DNA of 32,000 nucleotides from NCBI RefSeq assembly GCF_016863655.1, contig NZ_BOPH01000050.1, positions 25,665-57,664 of the forward strand. Reading direction: 5' to 3'. Position numbers and translations under genes: made by a program. Position 1 is the stretch's first letter; each line of letters begins with the position of its first letter. The notes under the pieces were generated by a model that saw only the letters and a list, made by a program, of their open reading frames with translations, was not told the DNA's origin and made no database searches. Of the stretch, positions 12,189-30,199 are shown piece after piece. The DNA comes from Virgisporangium ochraceum (GTDB lineage Bacteria; Actinomycetota; Actinomycetes; Mycobacteriales; Micromonosporaceae).

Positions 12189-12235
12189 CGAGACTAGAAA
12201 GCGGCGGGACCCCCGTCAAGCTCTGCAAGGATTGC

Positions 12236-12676
12236 GTGATGAGCGACGCCGAACCGGACCAGCGGGTGTTCCTCCTGCTCCAGCAGGCCGCACACCGGCT
12301 GCGGCTGTGGGCCGACCGGCGCAGCGTCGACCTCGCCGGAGTGACCACCGCGCAGACCGGCGCCCTGTTCGCGCTGCACGACGCGCCGAGGTCCACGCAA
12401 CGGGAGCTGGCCGCGGCGCTCGGGCAGCGGGAGTCCGCCGTCACGGCGATGGTGCGCCGGCTGCTCGACGCCGGGCTCGTCGAGCGTCACCCCAGCCCCG
12501 ACGACCACCGCGCCCACCAACTGGCCCTCACCGATTACGGGGTGGAAACCCTCGAAACCGTCAGGCCGTTGGTGGCCGAGTTCAACGCGATGCTGCGGCG
12601 GGTGCTCGGCGCCGACGGACCGCGCGCGCTCGCGGACGCCCTGCGGACCCTGCGCGACGCCGACGAGTTCCGATGA
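12236..12676 (+). CDS. MarR-family transcriptional regulator
   Basis: Track ORF 146 aa: ...FLLLQQAAHRLRLWADRRSVDLAGVTTAQTGALFALHDAPRSTQRELAAALGQRESAVTAMVRRLLDAGLVERHPSPDDHRAHQLALTDYG (MarR wHTH). Start is GTG 12236 or ATG 12239. Its TGA (12674..12676) overlaps the next ATG (12673..12675). Confidence 0.9.
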   Translation: MMSDAEPDQRVFLLLQQAAHRLRLWADRRSVDLAGVTTAQTGALFALHDAPRSTQRELAAALGQRESAVTAMVRRLLDAGLVERHPSPDDHRAHQLALTDYGVETLETVRPLVAEFNAMLRRVLGADGPRALADALRTLRDADEFR

Positions 12677-14180
12677 CCCTGGTCGACGTCCTCCTGCGGG
12701 CGGCCGACGAGGCACCGGACCAGGTGGTCGTGCACGTCCACGCCGACGGCACCGAGACCACGGTGACGCACCGCCAGCTGCGCGACGACGCGCTGCGGGT
12801 CGCCGCCGGCCTGTCGGCCGTTCCGCGGGGCATGCCCGTGATCCTCCGGTTGGACCGGAGCGCGGACTTCCAGGCGGCGTTCTGGGGCGCGGTGTGCGCC
12901 GGCCTCGTGCCGGTTCCGCTGGCTCCCGGCGCCACCCACGTGGCGGCGGCACTCGACCATCCACCCGTGGTCACGGCGGCCGACCTGCCCGCGTTGCGGC
13001 GCAACGGTTCCACCGGCGTGCGCCGGCGGGCGGCGGACGACCTCGCGTTCCTGCAGTACTCCTCGGGCAGCACCGGCGACCCGCGCGGCGTCGAGGTGAC
13101 GCACGCCAACATCGTGGCGAACCTGTCGCAGTCCGTCGCGGCGGGTGGCTTCCGGTCATCCGACGTGATCGTCACCTGGTTGCCGTACCACCACGACATG
13201 GGGCTGATCGGCAGCCATCTCGTGCCGCTGTCCGTCCACATGAGACAGGTCGTGCTCAGCCCGGTGACGTTCGCGAAGCGGCCCGTCCGCTGGCTGGAGA
13301 CCGCGACCCGGCACCGCGCCACGGTACTGCCCGCGGTGAACTTCGCGCTGGCGCTGGTCGTGCGGCGGGTACCGGACTGGGACGCGTTCGACCTGAGCCC
13401 GGTGCGGTTGTGCGCGGTCGGCGCGGAGCCGATCGCACCGGCCGTGTGGCGGTCGTTCCTGGAGAAGGCGGCGGCCGCCGGGCTGAATCCGGCCGCGGTG
13501 CAGCCGGTGTACGGGTTGGCGGAGGCGACCCTCGGCGTCTGCGCGCCGCCGTTGGGAGAGGCGGCGGTACCGGTGGTGCTCGACCGCGCGGCGCTGGCGG
13601 AAGGCCGGGCCGAGCCCGCTTCCTCCGGTGTGGGGGCCGAGTTCATGGACGTCGGCCACCCGGTGCCGGGATGCACCGTGCGGATCGTCGACGACGCGCG
13701 CGCCGCCCTGCCCGACGACCGCGTCGGCCACATCGAGGTGCGCGGACCGAACGTGGCCCGCGGCTACCACCGCGACCCGGACGCCACGGCACGGTCCTTC
13801 GTGGACGGTTGGCTGCGCACCGGCGACCTCGGGTTCCTCCGGCGTGGACGGTTGTGCGTCACCGGCCGGGCCAAGGACGTGGTGTTCGTCAACGGAGCGA
13901 CGCTCCACGCGTCGGACCTGGAGGCGGTGGCCGCCGCCACCCCCGGCATGCCGGCGGGCACGTGTGCGGTCGTGGGGACACCCGACCCGGCCACCGGCGC
14001 CGACCGCGTCGTGGTGTTCGTGCCGCGCCACAGCCCGGTGGCGCGCGTCGCGGGCCGGATCGCCGCGGCGACCGGGCACTCCGACGTCCACGTCGTGCCG
14101 CTCGCCACGCTGCCGCGCACGACGAGCGGCAAGGTGCGCCGCGCACTCCTGCGCGCCCGGTTCGAGGCGGGCGAGTTCCC
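12673..14180 (+). other. Domain: fatty acyl-AMP ligase (FAAL)-type adenylation domain
   Basis: Motifs: DLAFLQYSSGSTGDPRGVEVTHANIVANL, VTWLPYHHDMGLIG, YGLAEATLGV, WLRTGDLGF, TSGKVRR. Confidence 0.85.
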
Positions 14181-17100
14181 CGCGAAGCCCGACGCGGAGA
14201 GCACGGTCCGCCGCGCCTGGGGCAGGGCCCTGCGCCGGGACCCGGCGACCCTCGACGCGCACGACCGGTTCCTCGAGATCGGCGGCACGTCGCTCACGGC
14301 GATGCAGGTGCTGGCCGACCTCGAGGACGCGTACGGCGTCGAGCTCGACCCGCTCGTGCTCCGCGACCACGCGACGATCGCCCAGCTGGCCGGATACCTG
14401 GACGGCCACCGGCCGACCCCCGCGCGACCCACGACCGGCGCCGCGCCGGCAACGGGAACCGTGGCCGTCATCGGGATGGCGTGCCGGTTCCCCGGAGCCG
14501 ACACGCCCGAGCGCTTCTGGGACGCGCTGCTGGCCGGGTACGACGCCGTCGCCGACTCGACCCGCTGGGCCGGGTCCGGGTCGTTCCTCGACGATCCGGC
14601 GGCCTTCGACGCCGCGTTCTTCGGCCTCGACGCCGACGAGGCCGGGCACACCGATCCGCAGACCCGCATCCTCCTCGAAGTGGCGCACGAGGCGCTGGAA
14701 CGGGCCGGCTACGCCGGTCACCGCCGCCGCGGGGTACGGGTCGGTGTGTTCGCCGCGGCCGGCGAGAGCGGGTACGCCGACCTGCAGCGGCGGGCGGGCG
14801 TCTCCCCGCGGGCCGGGCTGATCGGCGGGCTGCGCACCCTCGTGGCCGCCCGCGTCGCCCACGCGCTCGACCTCGACGGGCCGGCGCTCGTCGTCGACAC
14901 CGCGTGCTCGTCGGCGCTCGTCGCCCTGCACCTGGCCCGGCTGAGCATCGCCGCCGGCGAATGCGACCTCGCCGTCGTCGGCGGGGTCAACCTGAACCTC
15001 ACCTCCGACGCCCACCGCGCGCTCGACGACGCGCGGGCCGTCTCGAAGACGGGGCGCTGCCGCGTGTTCAGCGCCGACGCCGACGGGATCGTGCCGGGCG
15101 AGGGCGCGGCGGCCCTGGTGCTCGCCGGTGCCGAGGCCGCCCGCCGGCGCGGAGATCCGGTGCTGGCGCTGGTACGCGGCAGCGCGGTCAACAACGACGG
15201 CCGCTCGCTCAGCGTCCTGACCCCGAACCCGCCGCGGCAGCAGGAGGTGATCGCCCGCGCGTACCGGGAGTCGGGGGTGGACCCGGCCCGGGTGTCCTAT
15301 GTGGAGGCCCACGGCACCGGCACGGTACTGGGCGACCCGATCGAGGTCCGGTCGCTGGCGCGGGCCCTGCCGCCCCGTCGCGACGGCCGGCCGCGGTGGC
15401 TGGGCTCGGTCAAGGCCAACCTCGGGCACCTGCTGAACGCGGCCGGCATGCCGGCGCTGGTCAAGGTCGTGCTGGCGCTGGGGCACCGGCGGCTTCCCCC
15501 GTCGCCGCACCACGACCCGGTCTCGACGCGGCTCGGCCTCGCCGGCGCGGGCCTCGCCGTGGTCGCCGGGCCCGTGGAGTGGACGGCCGACGGCCCGCTC
15601 GTCGCGGGCGTGAACGGGTTCGGCTTCGGCGGCACGAACGCCCACGTGATCCTGGAGGAACCGCCCACGGCACCGGTCTCCGCGCGGCGGCCGGGTCCCC
15701 ACCTGCTGACCCTGTCGGCCGGCAGCCCGCGCGCGCTCGACGAGGCGGTGGCCGCCCTACGCGCCCACGCCACCGCCCGGCCGGACCTCGGTGCCGGCGA
15801 CCTGTGCGCCAGCGCCGGCTCCGCGCGGGACCACGGCCGCCACCGCGTCTCGGTCGTGGTCGACGGCGACTCGGCCGCGGACGTGGCGGCCGCCCTGGCG
15901 ACCGCGACACCGGTGACGGCGGCCGGTTCCGCGCGGCTCGCGTTCGTCCTGCCCCCGACCGGGGGCGTCGGTGCGGCGCTGGCCCGTCGTCTCATGGCCG
16001 CCGGCATCCGCCCCGACACGGTGGTACGGGCCGGATCCGCCGTCGACGGGTCCGCGGTCGTCGTCGCGTTCGCCGGTGCGGCGCCGGGCGCCGCGGTGCC
16101 TGGCGACGGGCCGCGCGCCGCGGTGCCGGGCGCCCACGTGGTTCCCGCCGACGCCGACGGGCGGGCACTGCTCGCGCTCGCCGGCCGGCTGTGGGAGGTC
16201 GGCGTACCGCTGGACCGCACCGCGCTCGACGCCGGATCCACGCGCGTACCGGTGCCGACCTACCCGTTCCAGCGGCAGCGGTACTGGGTCGACCCGCCGC
16301 CGGCGCTGCACCGGCTCGACTGGCGGCCCGCCCCGCTGGCGGCCGGCGAGCCGCGACCCGTTCTGGTGCACCGGGTCGGCCCGTCCTCCACTGTGGACAG
16401 CGTCGGCAGCCTCGATGCCGAGGTCCGCGCGGCGGTCGCGGCCGTCCGCGGGCTGCTGGACCGGCGGACCGGCGCGGTCCTCGTGGTGACCGAGGACGTG
16501 TACGCCACCGGCGCACCCGGCGAGACGGTGCGACCGGCGCAGGCCGTGGCCGTCGGGCTGGCGCTGGCGCTGCCCGCGGAGGTACCCGGGCTCGGGGTGC
16601 GGGTCGTCGATCTGTCCACGGTGGACGGCGCCGACCGGCACGCCGCAGCGCTGGAGCGGGAGAGCACCGCGCCACCGGCGCCGGGCGCGGCCGAGGTCGT
16701 CGCGTGGCGCGGCGGTGAACGCCTGACCCGCGTGGCCGTACCGGTCGACGGTGCCGGTACCGGGCCGGTCGGCGGCGCCTATCTCGTCACGGGTGGCACG
16801 GGCGGCCTGGGCACCGCCCTGGCCCGGGACCTCGCCGCGAGCGGTCGGCCGACGGTCGTCCTCGTCGCCCGTGGCGCCACCCCGCCCGCGGACCTGCTCG
16901 CCGAGCTCCGGTCGCTCGGAGCCCGGGCCCACTACATCCCGTGCGATGTCGGCGATCCCGCTTCGGTCGAGGCGCTCGCCGCGGCCGTCGACGCGCTCGC
17001 GCCCACGCTGGACGCCGTGTTCCACGCGGCCGGCGTGCTCCGTCCGGGCAGCCTCGCCGCGCAGTCGGACGACGACCTCGCCGCGGTGCTGGCGCCCAAG

Positions 17101-20100
17101 GTGCGGGGAACCCACCTGCTCGCGGACGCCCTGCGCCCGCGCCGGTTCGTCTCGGTGTCGAGCGTCGTGACGCGCCGGCCCGGTCTCACGGGTGCCCTCG
17201 CCGGGTACGCCGCGGCCAACCACTTCCTGGCCGCCTCCGGCGCCGGCCGGGACGGTGCGGTGACGGTCCACCTGCCGCTGGTCGCCGACACCGGCATGGC
17301 CACGCCGGCGCTGACGGCGGCCCTCGCCGCGAAGGGCGTGCCCGTCGTCGACCGGGCCACCGCGGTGCGGGCGCTGCGGGCGGCCCTGACCGTCGACGGC
17401 GCGCACGAGCTGACGACCGTCGCCGAGGAACCGCCGCCGGAGCCCGGACCGCCACCCCCGGCCGGCCTGAAGGAGCTGCTGGAGCACCACGTCGGGCGGG
17501 AGCTGCGCACCGACGAGTCGCTGCTGCGACAGGGCATCGACTCTCTCACGGCGGTGGACCTCGTGAAGAAGCTGGAGCAGCGGCTCAACCGGGACCTGCC
17601 CACCACGCTGCTGTTCGAGTACGACACCATCGACGCGCTGGCCGGGTTCCTCGGCGAGGGCACGGCCCTCACGCCCGTGCAGCGCGCCTTCCACACGGCC
17701 GCCCGCATGTACCCGGACGTGCCCGCGTACGGCTACGTCCGGCAGACGCTCGACGGTCCGCTGGACGCCGCGCGGGTCGGCCGCGCGTTCGCGGTGCTGG
17801 CCGCGCGCCACCCGATGCTGCGGATGCGGCTCGTCGGCCCCGGGCCGCGGCAGGTGATCGCGCCACCGGCCACAGTGGACGTCGCACCGCCGTGGTTCAG
17901 CGAGGTGAGCCTGCGCACGACGCCGGAACAGCTCGACGAGGACCTGTGCAACCGGCCGATCGACCTCTTCCACGAGGCGCCGCTGCGCGCCGTGCTCGCC
18001 CGCGAGTCGTCCGGTCTCTCGCATCTCGTGATCGTCGGCCACCACGCCGCCGTCGACGGGTACAGCCTCCACCTGCTGTGCCAGGAGCTGTGGTCGATCT
18101 ACCGCGACGGCGCCGGCCCGGTGGCGCAGACCCCGTTCTCCGGGCTGCCGGTGACCCCGGCCTCCACAGTGGACACCGCGTACTGGCGGCGCGCGCTCGC
18201 CACCTACCCCGCCGGCCTCGCGCTGCCCTACGACGGAGACCCGTCCGCGGCACCGGCGCCGCCGCTGGTCACCCACCGGGTCGCGACCGACGCGGCGGCG
18301 CTGCGGGAAGCCGCCGCCGACGCCGGTGTCTCGCTGTTCCACCTCGTGCTCGCGTCGTACCTGCGGTGCCTCGCCACGTGGACGGGGCAGGAGCGGGTCG
18401 CGGTGACCGTCGCCCGGGCGGGCCGGGATGCCCGGGTGCCCGGGATCGGCGCGCTCATCGGTCCGCTCGCCGACGTGCTGCCGGTGGCGGTCGAGGTCGG
18501 CCCGGCCGACGACGTGCGCGCGGTGGCGGCCCGGGTGCGCGCGGCCTGGCTGGAGTCGGAGCGGCACGCATCGGTGTCCGGTGTGGACATCGGCCGCCTC
18601 GCGCCGGCCGGGGGCGCCGGGCTGCGGACGGCCGGGTTCAGCTTCGCCCGCTTCCCGGTGACCGTCGACACCGCCGGCCTGCCACCGGTGACCGCCACCG
18701 CGGCGGGCACCGGCTCGGCCGCCACCCGGCTGAGCCTGCTCGCGTGGGAGCTCGACGGGTCGCTGCACCTGTCGTGGACGTTCCCGCTCGCGTTGTTCCG
18801 CCGGGAGACCGTGGCGCGGCTCGCGACGGAGCACCTGGCCACGCTGACGGCCGCCGCGGGAGAGCACCCGGCCACGCTGACGGCCGCCGCGGGAGAGCGC
18901 CGGGCCGGGATCGTGCGCCGCGTCCTCGACCGCTGCGCCACCACGCCGGACGCCGTCGCCGTCGACCCGATGACGGGTCCGCCGCTCACCTACCGGGACC
19001 TCGACCGGGAATCCGGCCGCCTGGCCGCCGCGCTCGCGGCCCGCTCGGCCGGCGCGCGGGTCGGTCTGCTGACCCGGCCCGGCGTCGACACGGTCGTCGG
19101 CGTGCTGGGCGTGCTGCGGTCCGGCGCCGCGTACGTCCCGGTGGACGCCACCCACCCGCCCGGCCGCCTGCGCGACCAGCTCGACCGGGCCGGGGTCCGC
19201 CTGGTCGTGTGTCACGCGGCCACCGCCGACGCGGCGGCCGCGATCGGCCTGGAGCGGTTGGACCTGTCGGAGACCGGGGCGGCGACGTCCACTGTGGACG
19301 CCGAACCGGGTGACCTCGCGTACGTCATGTTCACCTCGGGGTCGACCGGCCGCCCCAAGGCTGTTCCGGTGACCCACACCGCGCTCGCCACCTACCTCGA
19401 CTGGGCCGTCGACACGTTCGGGTACGGGCCGGACGACCGGATGCTGCAGGTCGCACCGAGCTGTTTCGACGCCTCGGTGCGGCAGATCCTCGCGCCGCTG
19501 CTCGCCGGCGCGACGGTGGTTCCGGTCGACCGCGACCTGCTGCGCGACCCGGACGCGCTGCTCCGCCTCCTGGAACGCGGCCGGATCACGGTGTGGAGCT
19601 CGGTGCCGTCGCTGTGGGAACGGCTGCTCGCCGCCGCCGAACGACGGGCCGACCGGCCGGACCTGTCCGCACTGCGGTGGGTGCACGTCGGCGGCGAGCC
19701 GCTGGCGGTCGGCGCGGTGCGGCGCTGGTTCGACCTGTTCGGCGCGGGTGCACCGGTGACCAACCTGTACGGCCCGACCGAGACCACGATCAACGCGACG
19801 TACCACGTCGTCGCGCGGCGGCCGGCGGACGACGACCGCTCGGTCCCGATCGGACGGCCCGCCGCCGGTGCGCTCCTGCGGGTCGTGGACGACGACGGCC
19901 GCCCCGCCGACGAGGGCGAGCTGCTCATCGGCGGACCCGGCGTCAGCCCCGGCTACCTCGACGATCCCGAGCGCACGGCGGCCGCGTTCCGGTGGCGCGA
20001 CGGCCGGCGCTGGTACGTCAGCGGCGACGTGGTGCGGCGCCGCCCCGACGGCGTGCTGGAGTTCATCGGTCGCCGCGACGACCAGGTGAAGGTCCGCGGG

Positions 20101-22884
20101 CACCGGGTCGAACCCGGCGAGACCGAGGCGGTGCTGCGCGGTCACCCCGACGTCGAGCACGCGGCCGTCCTTCCCGACGGCACCCGGCTGGTCGCGTACG
20201 CGCAACCGCGGGCGGGAACCGATCCGGACCTGCGCGCGTACCTGCGCGAGCGGCTGCCCGAGTACCTGGTGCCGGCGCGGATCCACGTGCTCTCCGCGAT
20301 GCCGATGACCTCCGCCGGCAAGGTCGACCGGGGTCGGCTCGTGGGCACCGACGACGCGGACGCGACCGGCGGGCCACCGCGGGGCGTCACCGAGAAGGCG
20401 GTCGCGGCGGCGTGGTCGCGGCTGCTCGGCGCGGACCTGGTGGGACGCGAGGACGACTTCTTCACCCTCGGCGGCGACTCGATCCTCGCCCTGGACCTGT
20501 TCGCCCACCTGGCCGACGAGTTCCCCGGGCTCCCCCGCCCCACGGCGATCTACCGGCACCGCACCGTGCGGGCGCTGGCCGCCGCCATCGACGCGGCCCG
20601 CGGCGGACCGGAGCCCGAACCACGGGTTCCGGACCGGGCCGACACCCCGTTCCCGCTCACCGCGTCCCAGCGGGGTTTCCTGCTCGCCGAGGCGCTCGAC
20701 CCGGCCGGCAACCACGGCTGGCTGGCGCGCATCCGGCTGCGGGGGCCGCTCGACCGGGACCGGTTCCAGCGCGCCGTCGACGCGCTCGTCGAGCGGCACG
20801 GGATGCTGCGCACGGTGTTCCCGGCCGGGGCGCGGCCGCCCGTGCAGCAGGAGCTGCCGCCCGCGCTGCGGCTGCCCGTCGGGTTCCACACGTCCGATGT
20901 GGACGGTGTGGTCGCCGCGGAGCGGGTGCGCCGGTTCGAGCCGTGGGCCTGGCCGCTCATCCGGCTGCGGCTGGTGCGGGTCGGGCCGGAGGAGCACGTG
21001 CTCGTGGTCCACGCGCACCATCTCATCGGTGACGGCTACAGCGCCGCGCTGCTCGGCCGGGAGCTGCTCGACCGGTACCGCGACCCGGACCACCGGCCGC
21101 CCCCGCCGCGGAGCACGTTCCGGGACTTCGTCGCGGTCGCCGGCACCGGGCCGACGCTGCGTCCACGCGCGGTGCGGGCACCCGGCGGCGGCGCGGTGCG
21201 GGAGCACACCGGCGTCGCCGAGTCCCGTGTGGACGGTCGCACCGTCGCCGGGCTGCGACGGCTCGCCGCCGCGCATGGCGCCAGCGTCCACGGCGCCGTG
21301 CTCACCGCGTACGTGCGGGCGCTACGGCGGCACACCGGGCGCGCCGACCCCGCTGTCGGCGTCGCCACGACCGGGCGGGACCACCCGCTCCCCGACCTCA
21401 CGAGGCTGTTCGGCCCGTGTGTCACCGCCGTCGTCGTGCGGCCGGTGCCGGCCACGGGCTTCGTCGCCGACCTGCGGGCGGTGGCCGCGGCGCTGGAGAC
21501 GGCGCACGACAGCACGGCCGGCGGTGAGGTCGACGCCTTCCTCACGTACCTGGACTTCACCTCGCTCACCCGCCCGACCGGACCGGGCGAGCTGACCGCG
21601 GAGTGGGAGCCCGGCACCGAACTGGACCCGCCGGCCGCCGGCGCGGAGGTCGTACTCGCCGCCCGGCCCACGGACGACGGCCTGCTGTTCACCGTCCGCG
21701 CCGCGCTGCCACCGGACCGGGCGCGGGCTCTCGCCGACGCGGTCAGGGACGAGCTCACGGACGCGATCAGGCACGAGCTCACGGACGCGGTCAAGGGCCG
21801 CGCACGACGGAGAAGCTGGGCCGGGACGCTCGACGCCGCCCTGATCGGTTACCTGCCCTCGCCGGCGCACCTGGCCGCGATGGCCGGCCTGCCCACGAAC
21901 GCCGTTCCGCGCGACCGGGTCCGGGCCGCCCTCTTCCCGGGCGGCGCGCCCCGCCTCCTCGAGGTCGCCGAGACCGCCCTCGGCCGCTCCGGATACGTCT
22001 GTCTGCCCCGGTTCGCCGACGAACTGTCCACCGTGGACGGCCTGGCGGCCGAGGTCACCCGGGCGGTCGGGGAGGCGCACCGGTTCGGGGCACGCGGCGT
22101 CTCGCTGGCGGGGATGCTGCCGTCGCTCACCGGGTACGGGTTCGCGCTCGGGGACGACGACACGGTCACCACCGGGCACGCCGCCACGGCCGTGGCGGTC
22201 GCGGGCACCGTGGCCGCCGCGCTCAGCGCCACCGGCCGGGCGCCGGGCACGATCGCGTTCCTGGGCGTCGGCTCGATCGGACGCGCCGCGTTGAACCTCG
22301 TGCTGGCGCGGCTTCCCGAGCGGCCCGACCGGGTGCTGCTGTGCGACCTCCCCGCCACGGTGCCCGTCCTCCAGGAGCTACGCCGCACGCTGATGGACGC
22401 CGGCCACCGCGTGTCGATCGGCGACTGGTCCGACGCCGACCTGATCGTCGCGGCCACCAGCGCGTCGACGGCTCCGCTGCGGGCGGAGGACCTGCGGCCC
22501 GGCACGATCGTCGTCGACGACTCGTTCCCGCCGGCCATCGACCCCGTCGCCGCGCTCGACCGCATGCGCCTGAAGCGCGACGTGCTCGTGGTCGGCGGCG
22601 GGCTGCTCGCCGTCGGAGCCGTCGACCGCGTCACCGCGCCGGACCTGCCGCCGGACGTGATCGAGCGGTACGCCGCGCAGCCGCGGGTGCCCGGAACGCT
22701 GGCGTCGTGCCAGGTGGAGTCGCTGGCCCGGGCCGCCGATCCGGGGCTGCCGCGGGTCCGTGGCCTCGTGGAGCCCGAGGTCGCCGCCGCCTACGCGTCG
22801 GCGCTCGATCGGCTGGGCGTCGGCACCGCGCCGCCGCACCTGATGCACCACGTGATCGACCCGGCGACCCTGCGGCTGCCGTAG
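12673..22884 (+). CDS. Hybrid PKS-NRPS megasynthase: FAAL-ACP-KS-(AT-less linker)-KR-ACP-C-A-PCP-C-(AAR-like NAD(P) domain)
   Basis: In-frame ATG at 12673 (MTLVDVLLRAADEAPDQVVV...) inside track ORF 12232..22884. The first 147 codons of the track ORF overlap the MarR gene in another frame and are Arg/Pro-rich junk. Domain motifs are listed in the sub-features below. Confidence 0.95.
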   Translation: MTLVDVLLRAADEAPDQVVVHVHADGTETTVTHRQLRDDALRVAAGLSAVPRGMPVILRLDRSADFQAAFWGAVCAGLVPVPLAPGATHVAAALDHPPVVTAADLPALRRNGSTGVRRRAADDLAFLQYSSGSTGDPRGVEVTHANIVANLSQSVAAGGFRSSDVIVTWLPYHHDMGLIGSHLVPLSVHMRQVVLSPVTFAKRPVRWLETATRHRATVLPAVNFALALVVRRVPDWDAFDLSPVRLCAVGAEPIAPAVWRSFLEKAAAAGLNPAAVQPVYGLAEATLGVCAPPLGEAAVPVVLDRAALAEGRAEPASSGVGAEFMDVGHPVPGCTVRIVDDARAALPDDRVGHIEVRGPNVARGYHRDPDATARSFVDGWLRTGDLGFLRRGRLCVTGRAKDVVFVNGATLHASDLEAVAAATPGMPAGTCAVVGTPDPATGADRVVVFVPRHSPVARVAGRIAAATGHSDVHVVPLATLPRTTSGKVRRALLRARFEAGEFPAKPDAESTVRRAWGRALRRDPATLDAHDRFLEIGGTSLTAMQVLADLEDAYGVELDPLVLRDHATIAQLAGYLDGHRPTPARPTTGAAPATGTVAVIGMACRFPGADTPERFWDALLAGYDAVADSTRWAGSGSFLDDPAAFDAAFFGLDADEAGHTDPQTRILLEVAHEALERAGYAGHRRRGVRVGVFAAAGESGYADLQRRAGVSPRAGLIGGLRTLVAARVAHALDLDGPALVVDTACSSALVALHLARLSIAAGECDLAVVGGVNLNLTSDAHRALDDARAVSKTGRCRVFSADADGIVPGEGAAALVLAGAEAARRRGDPVLALVRGSAVNNDGRSLSVLTPNPPRQQEVIARAYRESGVDPARVSYVEAHGTGTVLGDPIEVRSLARALPPRRDGRPRWLGSVKANLGHLLNAAGMPALVKVVLALGHRRLPPSPHHDPVSTRLGLAGAGLAVVAGPVEWTADGPLVAGVNGFGFGGTNAHVILEEPPTAPVSARRPGPHLLTLSAGSPRALDEAVAALRAHATARPDLGAGDLCASAGSARDHGRHRVSVVVDGDSAADVAAALATATPVTAAGSARLAFVLPPTGGVGAALARRLMAAGIRPDTVVRAGSAVDGSAVVVAFAGAAPGAAVPGDGPRAAVPGAHVVPADADGRALLALAGRLWEVGVPLDRTALDAGSTRVPVPTYPFQRQRYWVDPPPALHRLDWRPAPLAAGEPRPVLVHRVGPSSTVDSVGSLDAEVRAAVAAVRGLLDRRTGAVLVVTEDVYATGAPGETVRPAQAVAVGLALALPAEVPGLGVRVVDLSTVDGADRHAAALERESTAPPAPGAAEVVAWRGGERLTRVAVPVDGAGTGPVGGAYLVTGGTGGLGTALARDLAASGRPTVVLVARGATPPADLLAELRSLGARAHYIPCDVGDPASVEALAAAVDALAPTLDAVFHAAGVLRPGSLAAQSDDDLAAVLAPKVRGTHLLADALRPRRFVSVSSVVTRRPGLTGALAGYAAANHFLAASGAGRDGAVTVHLPLVADTGMATPALTAALAAKGVPVVDRATAVRALRAALTVDGAHELTTVAEEPPPEPGPPPPAGLKELLEHHVGRELRTDESLLRQGIDSLTAVDLVKKLEQRLNRDLPTTLLFEYDTIDALAGFLGEGTALTPVQRAFHTAARMYPDVPAYGYVRQTLDGPLDAARVGRAFAVLAARHPMLRMRLVGPGPRQVIAPPATVDVAPPWFSEVSLRTTPEQLDEDLCNRPIDLFHEAPLRAVLARESSGLSHLVIVGHHAAVDGYSLHLLCQELWSIYRDGAGPVAQTPFSGLPVTPASTVDTAYWRRALATYPAGLALPYDGDPSAAPAPPLVTHRVATDAAALREAAADAGVSLFHLVLASYLRCLATWTGQERVAVTVARAGRDARVPGIGALIGPLADVLPVAVEVGPADDVRAVAARVRAAWLESERHASVSGVDIGRLAPAGGAGLRTAGFSFARFPVTVDTAGLPPVTATAAGTGSAATRLSLLAWELDGSLHLSWTFPLALFRRETVARLATEHLATLTAAAGEHPATLTAAAGERRAGIVRRVLDRCATTPDAVAVDPMTGPPLTYRDLDRESGRLAAALAARSAGARVGLLTRPGVDTVVGVLGVLRSGAAYVPVDATHPPGRLRDQLDRAGVRLVVCHAATADAAAAIGLERLDLSETGAATSTVDAEPGDLAYVMFTSGSTGRPKAVPVTHTALATYLDWAVDTFGYGPDDRMLQVAPSCFDASVRQILAPLLAGATVVPVDRDLLRDPDALLRLLERGRITVWSSVPSLWERLLAAAERRADRPDLSALRWVHVGGEPLAVGAVRRWFDLFGAGAPVTNLYGPTETTINATYHVVARRPADDDRSVPIGRPAAGALLRVVDDDGRPADEGELLIGGPGVSPGYLDDPERTAAAFRWRDGRRWYVSGDVVRRRPDGVLEFIGRRDDQVKVRGHRVEPGETEAVLRGHPDVEHAAVLPDGTRLVAYAQPRAGTDPDLRAYLRERLPEYLVPARIHVLSAMPMTSAGKVDRGRLVGTDDADATGGPPRGVTEKAVAAAWSRLLGADLVGREDDFFTLGGDSILALDLFAHLADEFPGLPRPTAIYRHRTVRALAAAIDAARGGPEPEPRVPDRADTPFPLTASQRGFLLAEALDPAGNHGWLARIRLRGPLDRDRFQRAVDALVERHGMLRTVFPAGARPPVQQELPPALRLPVGFHTSDVDGVVAAERVRRFEPWAWPLIRLRLVRVGPEEHVLVVHAHHLIGDGYSAALLGRELLDRYRDPDHRPPPPRSTFRDFVAVAGTGPTLRPRAVRAPGGGAVREHTGVAESRVDGRTVAGLRRLAAAHGASVHGAVLTAYVRALRRHTGRADPAVGVATTGRDHPLPDLTRLFGPCVTAVVVRPVPATGFVADLRAVAAALETAHDSTAGGEVDAFLTYLDFTSLTRPTGPGELTAEWEPGTELDPPAAGAEVVLAARPTDDGLLFTVRAALPPDRARALADAVRDELTDAIRHELTDAVKGRARRRSWAGTLDAALIGYLPSPAHLAAMAGLPTNAVPRDRVRAALFPGGAPRLLEVAETALGRSGYVCLPRFADELSTVDGLAAEVTRAVGEAHRFGARGVSLAGMLPSLTGYGFALGDDDTVTTGHAATAVAVAGTVAAALSATGRAPGTIAFLGVGSIGRAALNLVLARLPERPDRVLLCDLPATVPVLQELRRTLMDAGHRVSIGDWSDADLIVAATSASTAPLRAEDLRPGTIVVDDSFPPAIDPVAALDRMRLKRDVLVVGGGLLAVGAVDRVTAPDLPPDVIERYAAQPRVPGTLASCQVESLARAADPGLPRVRGLVEPEVAAAYASALDRLGVGTAPPHLMHHVIDPATLRLP
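14200..14410 (+). other. Domain: carrier protein 1 (ACP)
   Basis: Motif DRFLEIGGTSLTAMQVLADLE. The phosphopantetheine Ser codon is at 14290..14292. Confidence 0.8.
14461..15660 (+). other. Domain: ketosynthase (Cys-His-His triad intact)
   Basis: Motifs: VAVIGMACRFPGA, VVDTACSSALVALH (Cys codon 14905..14907), YVEAHGTGTVLGDPIE, GSVKANLGHLLNAAG, GFGFGGTNAHVILEE. Confidence 0.9.
15661..16290 (+). other. KS-to-KR linker lacking an acyltransferase core (AT remnant)
   Basis: Only about 200 aa separate TNAHVILEE from the post-AT-linker signature PTYPFQRQRYWV. A relic of the AT N-terminus (ARLAFVLPPTGG, where FVFPGQGxQ is usual) is present. There is no GHSxG and no xAxH motif. Confidence 0.7.
16387..16397. 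repeat. Iterated palindrome copy: TCCACTGTGGA
   Basis: Within the megasynthase. Read as tcc act gtg gac (S-T-V-D); ACT is a rare Thr codon. Confidence 0.9.
16614..16626. repeat. Iterated palindrome copy: GTCCACGGTGGAC
   Basis: Within the megasynthase. Read as tcc acg gtg gac (S-T-V-D). Confidence 0.9.
17455..17670 (+). other. Domain: carrier protein 2 (ACP)
   Basis: Motif LLRQGIDSLTAVDLVKKLEQ. The Ser codon is at 17542..17544. Confidence 0.8.
17870..17878. repeat. Iterated palindrome copy: CCACAGTGG (context GCCACAGTGGAC)
   Basis: Within the megasynthase. Read as gcc aca gtg gac (A-T-V-D); ACA is a rare Thr codon. Confidence 0.9.
18163..18173. repeat. Iterated palindrome copy: TCCACAGTGGA
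   Basis: Within the megasynthase. Read as tcc aca gtg gac (S-T-V-D). Confidence 0.9.
18829..18906 (+). repeat. In-frame 33-bp tandem duplication (2.4 copies) in the C-A interdomain linker
   Basis: Unit 18829..18861 (gagcacctggccacgctgacggccgccgcggga) and unit 18862..18894 differ at one base. A partial third copy follows. They encode EHLATLTAAAG / EHPATLTAAAG / ERRAG. Confidence 0.9.
18900..20345 (+). other. Domain: NRPS adenylation domain
   Basis: Motifs: LTYRDLD, LRSGAAYVPVD, LAYVMFTSGSTGRPKAV, SCFDASVRQI, NLYGPTETTI, GELLIGGPGVSPGY, YVSGDVV, QVKVRGHRVEPGE, SAGKVDR (Lys codon 20320..20322). Confidence 0.9.
19286..19300. repeat. Iterated palindrome copy: CGTCCACTGTGGACG (7-bp arms)
   Basis: Within the megasynthase A domain. 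Read as tcc act gtg gac (S-T-V-D). Confidence 0.9.
20380..20600 (+). other. Domain: peptidyl carrier protein
   Basis: Motif DDFFTLGGDSILALDLFAHL. The Ser codon is at 20479..20481. Confidence 0.85.
20640..21735 (+). other. Domain: condensation domain 2 (terminal; no carrier domain follows it)
   Basis: Motifs PFPLTASQRGFLLAEAL and VLVVHAHHLIGDGYSAALL (HHxxxDG; His codons 21016..21021). Confidence 0.75.
21736..21798 (+). repeat. In-frame 24-bp tandem duplication (2.6 copies) at the C2 / terminal-domain junction
   Basis: Unit 21736..21759 (gacgcggtcagggacgagctcacg) and unit 21760..21783 (gacgcgatcaggcacgagctcacg) differ at 2 bases. A partial third copy follows. They encode DAVRDELT / DAIRHELT / DAVKG. 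Confidence 0.85.
21800..22881 (+). other. Domain: C-terminal NAD(P)-binding domain resembling acyl-ACP reductase (AAR) / shikimate-DH-like fold; candidate reductive release domain
   Basis: Sequence blocks: ALIGYLPSPAHL, GVSLAGMLPSLTGYGF, VTTGHAATAVAVAGTV, IAFLGVGSIGRAALNLV (GxGxxG), DLIVAATSA, IVVDDSFPPAI, VLVVGGGLL, TLASCQVESL (Cys codon 22708..22710). The resemblance to AAR is from memory and was not searched. Confidence 0.5.
22026..22038. repeat. Iterated palindrome copy: GTCCACCGTGGAC
   Basis: Within the megasynthase terminal domain. Read as tcc acc gtg gac (S-T-V-D). Confidence 0.9.
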
Positions 22885-22898
22885 CCGACGGAGACCGG

Positions 22899-23585
22899 TC
22901 AGAGCTGCGCGTCGAGAACGGGCGCGGTGCCGGCGAGGATGCGGAGCAGGTCGTCGCGGAAGCGGCTGATCGCCGCCGCCATCGCGGCGGCGGCCGCGTC
23001 GGGGTCGCGGGCGCGCAACGCGGTGAGCAGGGTCAGGTGCTCCTCGCGGATGCGGGGCGCACCACCCGGCACGCCGGCCGCGAACGCTGCCGCGATCGCC
23101 CGCTCGCTCTCGTCGAGCAGGCGCTCCACCAGCGCCTCCTGGCGGCTGTTCCCGGCGGCGGCCGCGACCGCCACGTGGATGTCGCGGTTGACCGCGAGGA
23201 AGTCCTCCACAGTGGACCCGCCTTCATCCGACAGCCGGCCGACGCGGGCGACGAGCCCGTCGACGACCCCGGCGTCGAGGACCGTCGCCGCGACGCGGGC
23301 ACCGGCCGGCTCGACCAGCACGCGCAGGTCGTAGATCTCCCGGACGTCGCGCAATGTCAACGGCGCGATCACGTGCCCGCGGCGCGGCTCCGCCAGCACC
23401 AGCCCCTCGGCCCGCAGCCGCGCCAGGGCCGCCCGTACGGCCGCCTTCGACAGCCCGAAGCGGTCGCTCAGGTGGGTCTCCGACACCGGCGCCGACGGCG
23501 GCAGCTCCAGCCGGACGATCGCCCGGCGCAGGCGGAGGTAGGCGGCGTTGCCCGACGACGTTGCCGGTACGGCGACAGTGCTCAC
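22899..23585 (-). CDS. GntR-family transcriptional regulator (FCD subfamily)
   Basis: Within track ORF 22899..23978(-). Translation AYLRLRRAIVRLELPPSAPVSETHLSDRFGLSKAAVRAALARLRAEGLVLAEPRRGHVIAP (wHTH) plus a helical C-terminal half. I prefer GTG 23585 (VSTVAVPATSS...). The ATG at 23606 is followed by AT-rich codons (tca ata caa). Everything upstream of 23606 in the track ORF is antisense to the aminotransferase. Confidence 0.85.
   Translation of the reverse strand: MSTVAVPATSSGNAAYLRLRRAIVRLELPPSAPVSETHLSDRFGLSKAAVRAALARLRAEGLVLAEPRRGHVIAPLTLRDVREIYDLRVLVEPAGARVAATVLDAGVVDGLVARVGRLSDEGGSTVEDFLAVNRDIHVAVAAAAGNSRQEALVERLLDESERAIAAAFAAGVPGGAPRIREEHLTLLTALRARDPDAAAAAMAAAISRFRDDLLRILAGTAPVLDAQL
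23206..23216. repeat. Iterated palindrome copy: TCCACAGTGGA
   Basis: Within the minus-strand GntR gene. Read as tcc act gtg gag (S-T-V-E). Confidence 0.9.
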
Positions 23586-23599
23586 GCCGTCCCATTGTA

Positions 23600-23632
23600 T
23601 TGACATGTCACGGCAGCAATGTTGACATGTCA
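23600..23632. promoter_or_regulatory. Two copies of TTGACATGTCA (10-bp perfect palindrome TGACATGTCA), start-to-start spacing 22 bp; candidate GntR operators overlapping promoter elements
   Basis: Copy 1 is at 23600..23610 and copy 2 at 23622..23632. Each contains a TTGACA hexamer. On the minus strand a TACAAT hexamer (23594..23599) lies 8 nt upstream of the GntR GTG, consistent with a leaderless mRNA. Copy 2 ends 2 nt before the aminotransferase GTG (23635). Confidence 0.55.
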
Positions 23633-23634
23633 GG

Positions 23635-24918
23635 GTGACCACCGACAAGCTGATCCGGTACGGCGGCGAGTTCGCCTCCGAGCTCATCGAACGCGCCGAG
23701 GGCAGTTGGCTGACCACCGAGGGCGGCCGGCGCATCCTCGACTTCACGAGCGGGCAGATGTGCGCGACGCTCGGGCACGGCCACCCCGAGATCCTCAAGG
23801 CGATCGGCGACGCGAGCGGCCGGGTCGTGCACCTGTTCAGCGGCTTCCTGTCGCGTGACGTCACCGAACTGGCCCGCGAGCTGATGGCCACGCTGCCGGA
23901 GCCGTTGGCGCGCGCCATGTTCCTGTCGACCGGCGGCGAGGCGAACGAGGCCGCACTGCGTCTGGCGAAACTGCACACCGGCGGCTACGAGGTGCTGGCG
24001 TTCGCCGGCTCGTGGCACGGGATGACCGCCGGCGCGTCGTCGAGCACGTACAGCGCGGGACGGCGCGGCTACGGTCCCGGCATGCCCGGCGCGATGGCGC
24101 TGCCGGCGCCGAACACCTACCGGTGCCCGATCCGGCACTGCCGCGACACGTGTGACTTCACCTGCCTGGACACCGGGATGGCGCTCGTCGACACGATGTC
24201 GACCGGCGCTCCGGCGGCCGTGATCGCCGAGCCGATCCTCAGCGCCGGCGGCATCGTGCCGCTGCCGCCGGGCTACCTCGCGCGGCTGCGCGAGCACTGC
24301 GACGAGCGCGGCATGGTGATGATTCTCGACGAGGCGCAGACCGGCATCGGCCGCGTCGGCTCGATGTACGCGTTCGAACAGCACGACGTCGTACCCGACA
24401 TCCTCACGCTCAGCAAGACGCTGGGTGGCGGATTACCTTTGTCCGCAACGGTGACCACGAAAGAAATCGAGGAGGACGCCGCCGCGAAGGGCTTCCTCCA
24501 CTTCACCTCGCACGTGAGCGACCCGCTGCCGGCCGCCGTGGGACGGGCCGTGCTCCGCACGGTGCTCGCCGACGACCTTCCCGGACGCGCCCTGAAACTC
24601 GGCGAACGGCTGCGCGCCGGGCTCCTGGAACTGCAGCGCAAGCACGAGCCGATCGGTGACGTCCGCGGGCAGGGACTGCTGCTCGGAGTGGATCTGGTGG
24701 CCGACCGCGACACCCGCGCGGCCGCGCCGGAGTACTCGGTAGCGGTCACCAACCGGGCCCTGGAACTGGGCGTGAACATCAATATCGTCAAGTTCCCCGG
24801 CTTCGGCAGCGTACTGCGGATCGCCCCGCCGCTCACCGCGACCACCGACGAGATCGACCTCGGACTGGAGATGCTCGACAGAGCGCTGACCCTCGCACTG
24901 AGCGACGTTCGCGTTTGA
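23635..24918 (+). CDS. Class-III PLP aminotransferase, 2,2-dialkylglycine decarboxylase (DgdA)-like
   Basis: Track ORF 427 aa. Blocks LIRYGGEFASELIERAEGSWL...ILDFTSGQMCATLGHGHPEI...HLFSGFLSRDV...FLSTGGEANEAALRLAKL...AGSWHGMT...IAEPILSAGGIV...ILDEAQTGIGRVG...PDILTLSKTLGGGLPL...THVSDPLPAAVG...GDVRGQGLLLGV...RIAPPLT. From memory this aligns block for block with Burkholderia DgdA. Confidence 0.85.
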   Translation: MTTDKLIRYGGEFASELIERAEGSWLTTEGGRRILDFTSGQMCATLGHGHPEILKAIGDASGRVVHLFSGFLSRDVTELARELMATLPEPLARAMFLSTGGEANEAALRLAKLHTGGYEVLAFAGSWHGMTAGASSSTYSAGRRGYGPGMPGAMALPAPNTYRCPIRHCRDTCDFTCLDTGMALVDTMSTGAPAAVIAEPILSAGGIVPLPPGYLARLREHCDERGMVMILDEAQTGIGRVGSMYAFEQHDVVPDILTLSKTLGGGLPLSATVTTKEIEEDAAAKGFLHFTSHVSDPLPAAVGRAVLRTVLADDLPGRALKLGERLRAGLLELQRKHEPIGDVRGQGLLLGVDLVADRDTRAAAPEYSVAVTNRALELGVNINIVKFPGFGSVLRIAPPLTATTDEIDLGLEMLDRALTLALSDVRV

Positions 24919-24943
24919 GCAACGGCGAAAACGCCTCTACGGT

Positions 24944-24959
24944 GCTACGGATCCGTAGC
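24944..24959. promoter_or_regulatory. 16-bp perfect palindrome GCTACGGATCCGTAGC between the aminotransferase and glxA (short terminator hairpin or operator)
   Basis: The sequence is self-complementary. An extra direct CTACGG copy precedes it at 24937..24942. It lies 26 nt after the aminotransferase stop and 20 nt before the glxA GTG. Confidence 0.35.
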
Positions 24960-24978
24960 CTCGAAGGGGAAATCGCCT

Positions 24979-26889: not shown

Positions 26890-26896
26890 AACCGCG

Positions 26897-26926
26897 GTGG
26901 GACAGGGCCGGTCGGCCCTGTCCCAC
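26897..26926. terminator. 13-bp stem / 4-nt loop hairpin between convergent glxA and GH6 genes
   Basis: GTGGGACAGGGCC (26897..26909), loop GGTC, GGCCCTGTCCCAC (26914..26926). The arms are perfectly complementary. Confidence 0.6.
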
Positions 26927-26933
26927 GCCGGCA

Positions 26934-28010
26934 TCAGGACCTACGGGCCAGATCCAGCGCGTACTCCGGCCACCACGCACCGGCGCCGGGCTCCCCGGAA
27001 CGGCAGGCACCGTCCGACTCGCCGGGTCGTTTGATCCAGAGCAGTGCCGCCGCCCGCGGGTGCCCGGTGTCCACAGTGGGCGGTTGGCCGAGCTTGCGCC
27101 CCGGCGGGTTGCACCAGCTCGGCCCGCCGTTCACCTCGGCACCCGGAGCCGGGCCCGCGCCGTTGCGGCTCGTGTCGACGACGAACCGCTTCCCACCCAT
27201 CGCCGACGACAGGCGGTCGCCGTAGGCGAGGTTGTCCGCGGTCGGGATGAAGTTGGAGACGTTCAGGGAGAAGCCGTCGGCCGCGTCGCCACCGGCGCGA
27301 CGCAGCGCGCCGGCGAGCCTGCCCACGTCGGCGACCCACGCGGGATGGCCGGCGTCGAGGTAGACCAGGGCGTTCGGGGACGACTTCAGCGTGGTGACCG
27401 CGTCGCGCAGCAGCGCGTAGCGCTCGTCGGCCAGGTCTCCGCAGCCGTCGACGGTGTGCGGCACGGCGTCGGGCTCCACGACGACGACCGCGGGTCGGCC
27501 CTTCAGACCGGCCGCCACGGTGCGGATCCACGCCTTGTACGCCGCGGGTGACGCCGCTCCGCCGGCGCTGTAGCTGCCGCAGTCCCGGCCGGGGATGTTG
27601 TACGCGACGAGCACCGGCACCTGCCCGGCTGCCGCCGCGCGCGTCATGAGCGCGTCGACCTCCCGGGTCGCGTTGGTACCGGCGGTCAGCCAGTGGGCCA
27701 CCGCCCGGTCACCGATCTTGCGGATCTGCTGGGCGTCGGTGGCGCGGCTCTCGGCGATCCACCGCGCGGCCTGCTGGGTGGCCGGGTTCGCCGGGTCGAC
27801 GTAGAACTTCTTTCCCGCCAACGGGTTCGGTGGAAGGGGTGGCGGCGGCGACGGCAGCCCTTCCTGCTGTGCGTTGCCGCCCACACCACCCGGCAGCGCC
27901 GGTGCTCCGGTGCCGGTGACGGACGGCGGCTCGTCGGATTCGCATCCGGCCAACCCGGGAACCGACAACGCAAGGGCCGCAACGGTCGCAAGCCGAAGAA
28001 ATCTCGTCAT
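26934..28010 (-). CDS. cslZ: Glycoside hydrolase family 6 endoglucanase-like lipoprotein (CslZ-like)
   Basis: ATG at 28010 within track ORF 26934..28082(-). MTRFLRLATVAALALSVPGLAGC is a lipoprotein signal with lipobox LAGC. GH6 motifs: YNIPGRDCGSYSAGG, VVVEPDAV, YLDAGHPAW, WIKRPGESDG. Confidence 0.85.
   Translation of the reverse strand: MTRFLRLATVAALALSVPGLAGCESDEPPSVTGTGAPALPGGVGGNAQQEGLPSPPPPLPPNPLAGKKFYVDPANPATQQAARWIAESRATDAQQIRKIGDRAVAHWLTAGTNATREVDALMTRAAAAGQVPVLVAYNIPGRDCGSYSAGGAASPAAYKAWIRTVAAGLKGRPAVVVVEPDAVPHTVDGCGDLADERYALLRDAVTTLKSSPNALVYLDAGHPAWVADVGRLAGALRRAGGDAADGFSLNVSNFIPTADNLAYGDRLSSAMGGKRFVVDTSRNGAGPAPGAEVNGGPSWCNPPGRKLGQPPTVDTGHPRAAALLWIKRPGESDGACRSGEPGAGAWWPEYALDLARRS
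27071..27079. repeat. Iterated palindrome copy: CCACAGTGG (context GTCCACAGTGGG)
   Basis: Within the minus-strand GH6 gene. Read as ccc act gtg gac (P-T-V-D). Confidence 0.9.
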
Positions 28011-28051
28011 GAATCCATTCCGGTTCTCGACAAGCGGAAACCATAACCCAG

Positions 28052-28067
28052 CCACCCGAACGGGTGG
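28052..28067. promoter_or_regulatory. 16-bp palindrome CCACCCG-AA-CGGGTGG in the cslZ/cslA divergent promoter region
   Basis: Perfect 7-bp arms with a 2-bp spacer. It lies in the comparatively AT-rich 143-bp gap between the starts at 28010(-) and 28154(+). Confidence 0.4.
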
Positions 28068-28153
28068 ACTAAATCTGCGCATACATCACCTACCGGTGCG
28101 AACAGCCCCGACGCGAGTTAGCTTCACCGGGACCCGGAAATACCGTCCGCGCA

Positions 28154-30166: not shown

Positions 30167-30199
30167 TCGCGGGGGGCTCCCCTGTGGAGCCCCCCGCGA
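30167..30199. terminator. 14-bp perfect stem / 5-nt loop GC-rich hairpin immediately after the cslA stop
   Basis: TCGCGGGGGGCTCC (30167..30180), loop CCTGT, GGAGCCCCCCGCGA (30186..30199). It begins 1 nt after TGA 30164..30166. Confidence 0.7.

Follow-up and report, generated by a model that had tools for sequence, protein, structure and literature searches.

The window analysed here is a stretch of 32,000 nucleotides of Virgisporangium ochraceum DNA (RefSeq assembly GCF_016863655.1, contig NZ_BOPH01000050.1, positions 25,665 to 57,664 of the forward strand), and the subject of this work is the C-terminal domain of a hybrid polyketide synthase-non-ribosomal peptide synthetase (PKS-NRPS) megasynthase encoded within it. 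An initial annotation, made from the sequence alone, had seen in this domain a resemblance to acyl-ACP reductase (AAR) and a possible new means of off-loading a finished chain. With a probability of roughly 0.9, the domain is a member of the terminal amidation domain (TAD) family, within the AAR superfamily, and has its Cys/NAD active site intact; this estimate concerns the identity of the domain and not its end product. The gene and the domain are located as follows (all positions are those of the window).

12673..22884, + strand: hybrid PKS-NRPS megasynthase gene, FAAL-ACP-KS-(AT remnant)-KR-ACP-C-A-PCP-C-TAD (open reading frame, translation, G+C content of third codon positions (GC3), Pfam)
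21832..22881, + strand: TAD-family terminal domain with AAR fold, amino acids (aa) 3054-3403 (sequence, profile, AlphaFold2, Foldseek)

The megasynthase gene and its terminal domain

The megasynthase is a protein of 3403 aa, translated from the ATG at 12673 (MTLVDVLL...) to the TAG stop codon at 22882-22884. Its reading frame is uninterrupted and has a GC3 of 0.92, in a window with a GC content of ~72-77%, and codon-position GC and translation together indicate a single gene. The open reading frame list had placed the start at TTG 12232 (12232-22884), which was rejected in favour of ATG 12673: the 147 Arg/Pro/Ala-rich codons ahead of this ATG (12232-12672) are an open frame that represents a high-GC artefact and lies outside the protein. 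Two minus-strand open reading frames underneath the terminal domain (21849-22634 and 22378-22851) display the codon-position GC pattern of antisense shadows and were not retained as genes. The exact megasynthase protein was without a database record, while the adjoining aminotransferase (see below) has one.

The TAD is a 400-aa terminal domain of the carmabin (CarI), vatiamide (VatR) and hectoramide (HcaD) NRPSs (Rankin et al., bioRxiv 10.1101/2024.10.28.620694), and structures of the CarI domain (9E4S, 9E4U, 9E4X, 9E50 and 9E56; PDB release 2025-02-26) are deposited under the name “Amino acid adenylation domain protein”. According to the same preprint, the CarI TAD is composed of a macrodomain-like N-lobe and a Rossmann C-lobe, binds NAD(H) and not NADP(H) owing to Asp2102, and carries an invariant Cys2238 at the start of a helix, 4 Å from the nicotinamide C4. 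A Thr-Thr-Gly motif positions this catalytic Cys and an Asp-Asp-Ser-Gly-cisPro loop lies under the nicotinamide, while the phosphopantetheine (Ppant) arm of the PCP can be crosslinked to the Cys, with which dephospho-CoA also makes a disulfide. The authors pointed out that the structure resembles cyanobacterial AAR, with Cys2238 being equivalent to Cys294 of the latter. A literature search for work citing or extending this study retrieved only the preprint itself.

Searching the PDB chains with phmmer matched query residues 87-386 to the CarI TAD (all five entries named above) with E=4e-24. A family profile, derived from an alignment of 21 database homologues and searched against the PDB sequences, raised this match to E=4e-83 with the whole domain covered, and was followed by PigE's N-terminal domain (E=1.9e-11, Cys aligned), by AAR (E=2e-9, Cys3346 of the megasynthase aligned to Cys294) and by SbnB (4m54, E=7.5e-4, Rossmann part only). 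The AlphaFold2 model obtained with the family alignment (pLDDT 92.6, pTM 0.91) gave the same order when compared with the PDB using Foldseek: ranks 1-10 are CarI TAD chains (E=3e-30, TM 0.82-0.86, rmsd 2.8-3.6 Å) and ranks 11-16 are AAR (E ~1e-15, TM 0.65-0.71), after which the TM score falls sharply to ~0.3 for matches that are restricted to the Rossmann half. Model and Foldseek alignment to the CarI TAD also support the two-lobe fold for the domain studied here. The AAR likeness put forward in the initial annotation is therefore borne out by profile, fold and cysteine position, although a much closer described family ranks first in each search.

The set of matches at TM ~0.3 includes pyrroline-2-carboxylate reductase, CmnK, shikimate dehydrogenase, ornithine cyclodeaminase and glutamyl-tRNA reductase, and it is here that a different identity was considered, namely that of an enzyme resembling ornithine cyclodeaminase, SbnB or shikimate dehydrogenase which tailors a small molecule and takes no part in chain release. 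Some matches point that way: NCBIfam returned weak hits to SbnB (1.2e-4) and cyclodeaminases besides PigE, the profile matches SbnB 4m54, and Foldseek matches in this group have E ~1e-5. These matches span only ~110 residues of the Rossmann fold at TM ~0.3, as opposed to the full-length TAD and AAR matches at TM 0.65-0.86, and the motifs (Cys, TTG and DDS) are particular to TAD and AAR. The weak NCBIfam matches are superfamily-level or Rossmann-only similarity, and profile search and Foldseek effectively refute such an enzyme, which is left as a very improbable identity. Ornithine cyclodeaminase and glutamyl-tRNA reductase, which the initial annotation had named as families that would speak against AAR if they ranked first and the Cys were not conserved, match in the Rossmann half only, and the Cys is invariant. 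No AAR model was among the NCBIfam matches at E<=1, the sequence likeness to AAR being visible at the profile level only.

Thioesterase (TE) domains and reductase (R) domains of the short-chain dehydrogenase/reductase (SDR) type occupy the same end-of-assembly-line position and have the same presumed task of chain release, but are unrelated in fold to the terminal domain. A regular-expression search of the last 363 aa found no GxSxG, no TGxxGxxG and no YxxxK motif, GVGSIG being the sole nucleotide-binding motif, Pfam assigned no family to the terminal 394 aa (including no match to NAD_binding_4, SDR or Thioesterase), and no hydrolase was among the Foldseek matches. In this respect the initial annotation, which had excluded both TE and SDR-type R domains, was correct.

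The eight sequence blocks on which it had been based are all present in aa 3056-3351:

aa 3056-3067: ALIGYLPSPAHL
aa 3142-3157: GVSLAGMLPSLTGYGF
aa 3165-3180: VTTGHAATAVAVAGTV
aa 3194-3210: IAFLGVGSIGRAALNLV
aa 3256-3264: DLIVAATSA
aa 3279-3289: IVVDDSFPPAI
aa 3304-3312: VLVVGGGLL
aa 3341-3351: GTLASCQVESL

The active-site residues of the CarI TAD can be retrieved from the same region by alignment, and their conservation was determined among 77 orthologues recovered from genome loci and among 110 representatives of the family:

22168..22176, + strand: Thr-Thr-Gly, T3166-T3167-G3168, equivalent to CarI 2042-2044 (alignment to 9e4x)
22264..22281, + strand: GVGSIG dinucleotide-binding P-loop, aa 3198-3203, equivalent to CarI 2076-2081 (glycines invariant)
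22345..22347, + strand: Asp3225, equivalent to CarI Asp2102, in the aligned LCD motif (D in 77/77 orthologues)
22516..22530, + strand: Asp-Asp-Ser-Phe-Pro loop, aa 3282-3286, equivalent to CarI 2169-2173 (DDSGP) (alignments)
22708..22710, + strand: Cys3346 (TGC codon), putative acyl-accepting cysteine, equivalent to CarI Cys2238, AAR Cys294 and PigE Cys296 (alignments)

All of these elements (TTG, GxGxxG, Asp3225, the DDSxP loop and Cys3346) are essentially invariant in the orthologues and are also kept in the family representatives. Both Thr positions of Thr-Thr-Gly are Thr in 76 of the 77 orthologues and the Gly and the remaining residues are present in every one of them, and Cys3346, correctly placed in the initial annotation, is a Cys in all 77 orthologues and all 110 representatives. 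Homology and conservation thus show an NAD(H)-type Rossmann site, as judged from its sequence, together with a conserved Cys at the position which accepts the acyl chain in AAR and is reached by Ppant in CarI. Asp3225 is predicted to confer selectivity for NAD(H) against NADP(H) and CoA, and use of NADPH by the terminal domain appears unlikely because this residue conserves CarI Asp2102, which excludes the 2'-phosphate. In the DDSFP loop both Asp residues, the Ser and the Pro are kept, whereas Phe replaces the CarI Gly in 77/77 orthologues; considering that the contacts made by this Gly in CarI are through its backbone, the change may be tolerated.

Likeness to the CarI TAD therefore encompasses homology over the full length (25-26% identity), the two-lobe fold, the position at the extreme C-terminus of an NRPS, and the TTG, GxGxxG, NAD-selecting Asp, Asp-Asp-Ser-x-Pro and invariant Cys elements. 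Differences within the domain are the loop residue (Gly/Ala in CarI-type TADs, Phe here), the sequence following the cysteine (Cys-Ala-Phe-Ser in CarI, Cys-Gln-Val-Glu here) and the loss of ~12 residues from one loop of the Rossmann lobe. With AAR (6JZQ, 6JZU, 6JZY, 6JZZ) the domain shares the overall fold, the position of the Cys, Cys-x-x-Glu, the dinucleotide-binding loop and TTG(N/H), but identity is only 17-18%, and AAR is a free-standing, NADPH-using enzyme that docks an aldehyde-deformylating oxygenase, has a Gly at the second Asp of the DDS loop (DGGYP as compared to DDSFP), and has no counterpart to the strand and helix that begin the TAD N-lobe or to a 32-residue excursion.

The loop or strand of the Rossmann lobe that is shortened relative to homologues by ~12 residues corresponds to aa ~3236-3255 (~22380-22440), and reads RVS-I-GDWSD as compared to a consensus of VxVxESDxxLPxxVY, in a part of the model where confidence is at least 86.

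Identity of the terminal domain is 47-54% to members from Streptomyces and Micromonospora and 80% to its Virgisporangium orthologue, and the domain is therefore part of a group that has already been catalogued, being the actinobacterial group which corresponds to clusters 1 and 5 of the sequence similarity network (SSN) of Rankin et al. In the supplement of that study cluster 1 contains 460 sequences, mostly from Streptomyces, and cluster 5 contains 33, mostly from Micromonospora; its identity matrix gives 25.5 and 26.1% identity to AAR for clusters 1 and 5, as compared to 17.9-21.4% for the other clusters. The novelty that the initial annotation had attached to the domain does not hold, since the TAD family, its structures, its AAR likeness, its invariant Cys and its actinobacterial clusters have all been published (Rankin et al.), and the proposed off-loading domain is thus already present in the literature and in the PDB as TAD, its AAR ancestry having been noted there. 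Neither is cis-fusion of an AAR-like domain without precedent: PigE (PDB 4PPM; PMC8341465) and the C-terminal domain of TamH, which uses NADH (PMC9594044), are AAR-like thioester reductases fused to a class-III transaminase, and were known before.

The C-TAD arrangement

In CarI the TAD directly follows the PCP of the terminal module, whereas here a complete condensation (C) domain of ~375 aa is located between the two:

20398..20589, + strand: PCP, aa 2576-2639, LGGDSIL, the last carrier of the protein (Pfam PP-binding, motif position)
20650..21777, + strand: terminal condensation domain C2, aa ~2660-3035 (Pfam Condensation; PDB sequence matches to the C domains of PvdL and TycC)

Pfam recognizes three carrier domains in the megasynthase, which end at aa ~576, 1660 and 2639, and with only ~20 residues separating the end of C2 from the terminal domain there is no room for another, so that the initial annotation was right in describing C2 as carrier-less. 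The active-site motif of C2 (HHLIGDG, nt 21016-21036) appears to be under constraint, as the surrounding HAHH[LIV]IGDGYS pattern is invariant in 77/77 orthologues; taken together with the invariant TAD motifs, this points to strong selection on the active sites of both terminal domains.

The place of this arrangement in the family was examined by a profile search of 1.84 billion cluster representatives, in which 632 proteins scored E<=1e-30 and 1517 scored E<=1e-10. Among the best 150 matches the TAD is almost always at the extreme C-terminus of a protein of 1000-4300 aa. Among the best 119 representatives with enough upstream sequence, the domain directly before the TAD is a PCP in 56 and a C-like domain in 54 (~45%), the latter nearly always having retained its catalytic His. 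The C domain followed by a TAD (C-TAD) is thus a major arrangement of the family and not a peculiarity of the gene in this window, and because of this share the placement of the TAD after a PCP (PCP-TAD) describes the studied examples rather than the family as a whole. The C-TAD arrangement is not discussed in the main text of Rankin et al.

The two arrangements differ in their active-site signatures. The variable residue of the DDS-x-P loop is Phe in C-TAD (53/54) and Ala or Gly in PCP-TAD, and the cysteine is followed by the pattern Cys-[Q/R]-x-Glu in C-TAD (Glu in 53/54) as opposed to Cys-[V/I]-[L/F]-Ser in PCP-TAD (Ser in 53/56). Cys-x-x-Glu is also found in AAR (C-F-A-E) and in PigE (C-M-A-E), while CarI has C-A-F-S; the signature of C-TAD is accordingly placed partly between TAD and the true reductases. 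The AAR structure paper was found to describe no role for the Glu located three residues after the Cys. What is added by the current analysis is a recurrent architecture in ~75 genomes without conserved neighbours, the recognition of C-TAD as about half of TADs, and an active-site signature particular to C-TAD.

A further step would be to regard the C-TAD didomain as a functionally distinct release machine, and not as a TAD with a spacer in front of it, in which the TAD either reduces the chain or oxidatively makes a partner for the C domain. We consider this a speculative and rather unlikely proposition; if true, the product would be a novel lipo-amino-acid derivative made by a single-gene pathway across Streptomyces, Micromonospora and relatives.

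The assembly line and chain release

The domains upstream of the last carrier are the following:

12673..14142, + strand: FAAL loading domain, aa 1-490 (Pfam AMP-binding; NCBI name of close homologues: fatty acyl-AMP ligase)
14203..14400, + strand: ACP1, aa 511-576 (Pfam PP-binding, E=3.6e-15)
14458..15510, + strand: ketosynthase (KS), aa 596-946 (Pfam ketoacyl-synt and Ketoacyl-synt_C)
15937..16287, + strand: acyltransferase (AT) remnant, internally deleted, aa 1089-1205 (motif spacing, no Acyl_transf_1 match)
16774..17253, + strand: ketoreductase (KR), aa 1368-1527 (Pfam KR, E=4e-34)
17455..17652, + strand: ACP2, aa ~1595-1660, GIDSLT (Pfam PP-binding, motif position)
17665..18876, + strand: condensation domain C1, aa 1665-2068, HHAAVDG at aa 1790-1796 (Pfam Condensation, E=6e-33)
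18931..20322, + strand: adenylation (A) domain, aa 2087-2550 (Pfam AMP-binding and AMP-binding_C)

A scan of one genome per species yielded 237 relatives, and the best 80 loci were compared by tblastn with each domain of the window protein. The full FAAL-ACP-KS-(AT)-KR-ACP-C-A-PCP-C-TAD order was observed in ~75 of these 80 loci, and the genera in which the megasynthase occurs include Streptomyces, Micromonospora, Streptosporangium, Microtetraspora, Thermopolyspora, Couchioplanes and Virgisporangium.

In the AT remnant only ~96 aa separate LAFVLPPTGG from the post-AT linker PTYPFQRQRYW, GHSxG is absent and Pfam Acyl_transf_1 is not matched. The spacing from KS to KR is correspondingly 420 aa in the window protein and 640-810 aa in most other orthologues; GHSVG is kept in the Streptomyces and Couchioplanes orthologues, and is also missing from the Virgisporangium orthologue and from two of Micromonospora. 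Considering that the cis AT is deleted, the PKS module must be served by a trans-acting (malonyl) transferase.

The 10-residue code of the A domain, extracted by hand against the GrsA anchor motifs, is DARSHGLINK. The same code is present in 52 orthologues, with DARSHGLVNK in 22 and DARSHGMINK in one, and two are truncated at the first three positions; being near-invariant, the code implies that all orthologues should use one amino acid. We know of no code that DARSHGL(I/V)NK would fit, and the Arg, Ser and His predicted to line the pocket hint at an acidic or polar side chain.

The terminal domain ends a self-contained lipo-amino-acid megasynthase, the operation of which may be envisaged as follows. 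FAAL would load a fatty acid, which KS and KR, with the trans-acting acyltransferase, would convert to a 3-hydroxyacyl chain, and C1, A and PCP would then attach one amino acid. With its Ppant arm, the last PCP (aa 2576-2639) would reach into the NAD tunnel, the N-(3-hydroxyacyl)-aminoacyl chain would move onto Cys3346 as a thioester, and an NAD(H)-assisted step would release it. We infer this transfer from PCP to Cys3346 and the subsequent release; for the end group that is generated, three outcomes were weighed.

The first is a primary amide, for which family precedent makes a respectable but less than even case: TAD pathways with known products lead to C-terminal primary amides (Rankin et al.), the terminal domain resembles the amide-linked TADs much more than AAR, and has the second Asp of the DDS loop in common with these TADs. 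The products of the cyanobacterial CarI, VatR and HcaD pathways are primary amides.

The second is an aldehyde, generated by AAR-type reduction with NADH, an outcome that by analogy is possible, but on balance unlikely. It corresponds to the function suggested in the initial annotation, that of an AAR-type thioester reductase in which the chain passes from the PCP to Cys3346 and is released by NAD(P)H reduction as an N-acyl-amino aldehyde, and we judge that function similarly doubtful. Thioester reduction is the sole chemistry to have been demonstrated in the superfamily (for AAR, PMC7089970; for TamH with NADH, PMC9594044; for PigE, PMC8341465), Cys-x-x-Glu is common to C-TAD, AAR and PigE and is replaced by Cys-x-x-Ser in the amide-linked CarI, and SSN clusters 1 and 5 are the nearest to AAR in the published identity matrix. 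Nevertheless, the profile matches are far stronger to TAD than to AAR, the DDS loop retains its second Asp, which is particular to TADs (Gly in AAR, Val in PigE), Asp3225 speaks against NADPH, the CarI and VatR TADs gave no release in vitro with NAD(H), releasing no substrate with NADH (Rankin et al.), and thioester reduction leaves no role for the invariant C2.

A reductive release would also be in line with the presence of a transaminase gene close to the megasynthase:

23635-24915: class-III aminotransferase, ~750 bp downstream of the megasynthase

PigE and TamH resemble the present protein in that an AAR-superfamily domain is cis-fused to a biosynthetic enzyme and acts on carrier-bound thioesters, and PigE additionally in its aligned Cys and in Cys-x-x-Glu. 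They differ from it in being fused to a transaminase instead of an NRPS, in carrying out reduction followed by transamination and, in the case of PigE, in having DVALP in place of DDSFP; moreover, the nearby transaminase is a separate gene here, without conservation at the other loci examined. It adjoins the megasynthase only in this window and in Virgisporangium aurantiacum among those loci, two Micromonosporaceae loci have a homologue of 39% identity located ~7 kb off on the opposite strand, the remaining loci examined lack it, and the aminotransferase was consequently rejected as a conserved partner in a PigE/TamH-like pair.

The third outcome is an end group of another kind, whose formation involves the catalytically intact C2; this is likewise tentative, and short of an even chance. 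Neither the amide nor the aldehyde explains why C2 is invariant, which leaves room for release performed by C2 with a nucleophile supplied by the TAD. In its specific form, with C2 as the actual release catalyst, joining a small nucleophile to the chain on the PCP, we regard this as improbable. Consistent with it are the HHxxxDG motif, invariant in all orthologues, the C-like domain with its nearly always retained catalytic His that precedes the TAD in about half of the family representatives, the location of the TAD where a downstream A-PCP would be, and the generation of ammonia by the TAD, which is among the schemes considered by Rankin et al.; as no partner gene is conserved on either side, the nucleophile must then be a common metabolite. 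However, PCP-TAD systems work without such a C domain, the invariant Cys, shown to be reached by Ppant, suggests that catalysis is covalent and takes place in the TAD itself, known amino-acid dehydrogenases are lacking among the TAD homologues (Rankin et al.), and release by C2 is purely inferential.

Several observations weigh against a TAD that simply receives the chain from the PCP on its Cys and releases it. None of the TADs assayed in vitro displayed catalytic activity, as a consequence of which amide formation and thioester reduction are both deductions. The TAD follows a C domain and not a PCP, and a direct passage from PCP to Cys leaves the invariant C2 unexplained. C-TAD differs from the amide-linked cyanobacterial TADs in its active site (DDS-F-P as opposed to DDS-A/G-P, Cys-x-x-Glu as opposed to Cys-x-x-Ser), so that function may differ within the family. 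Finally, a literature search on the megasynthase architecture returned no relevant work and no product for the megasynthase or its orthologues.

The actinobacterial version of the domain offers a different experimental handle on the TAD reaction. The megasynthase is a single, self-contained gene whose product is very small, combining one fatty acid with one ketide and one amino acid. In hundreds of actinomycetes that can be cultured the gene is conserved, and the additional catalytic C domain is always part of it. Once the product of the megasynthase is identified, the action of C-TAD would be directly apparent, be it formation of an amide, an aldehyde or something else, which would help to settle the mechanism for the family.

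Neighbouring genes

De novo clustering of the downstream open reading frames of the 80 loci revealed no conserved gene, the best candidate being present in 17 of them, and the upstream neighbours of three Streptomyces orthologues are all different, with none in common. With no conserved neighbours at the loci examined, there is no candidate for a nitrogen donor or partner enzyme, and the megasynthase has the appearance of a self-contained pathway in one gene.

Directly downstream of the megasynthase, at 22899-24915, a minus-strand GntR/FCD regulator is followed by the divergently oriented class-III aminotransferase, which is 94% identical to its counterpart in V. aurantiacum. The two are probably an unrelated catabolic pair, because they are unlinked to the megasynthase in the other loci examined.

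The region upstream of the megasynthase (3126-12164) encodes an acyl-CoA dehydrogenase, a family III CoA-transferase, a GntR regulator, a BAAT-type acyl-CoA thioesterase, an Hsp70/MreB-like protein of 550 aa, a 282-aa protein without Pfam match, a DUF559 endonuclease-like protein and an Amidohydro_2 gene, the last being divergent from the megasynthase. None of these genes recurs beside the orthologues examined.

Further downstream, 24979-30163 contains genes for a GlxA-like radical copper oxidase, a GH6 glycosidase (minus strand) and a CslA-like family-2 glycosyltransferase, and resembles the Streptomyces cslA-glxA-cslZ glycan locus, with a different gene order. In V. aurantiacum, which is the closest named relative (~80% nucleotide identity), the GH6 gene and its flanks are kept and the glxA-like and cslA-like genes are missing at that position. 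Positions 21245-32000 of the window are 99.8-99.98% identical to contig BAAAHN010000169.1 of assembly GCA_039525495.1, which breaks inside the C2 domain and exhibits a difference of ~61 bp near window positions 25778-25840.

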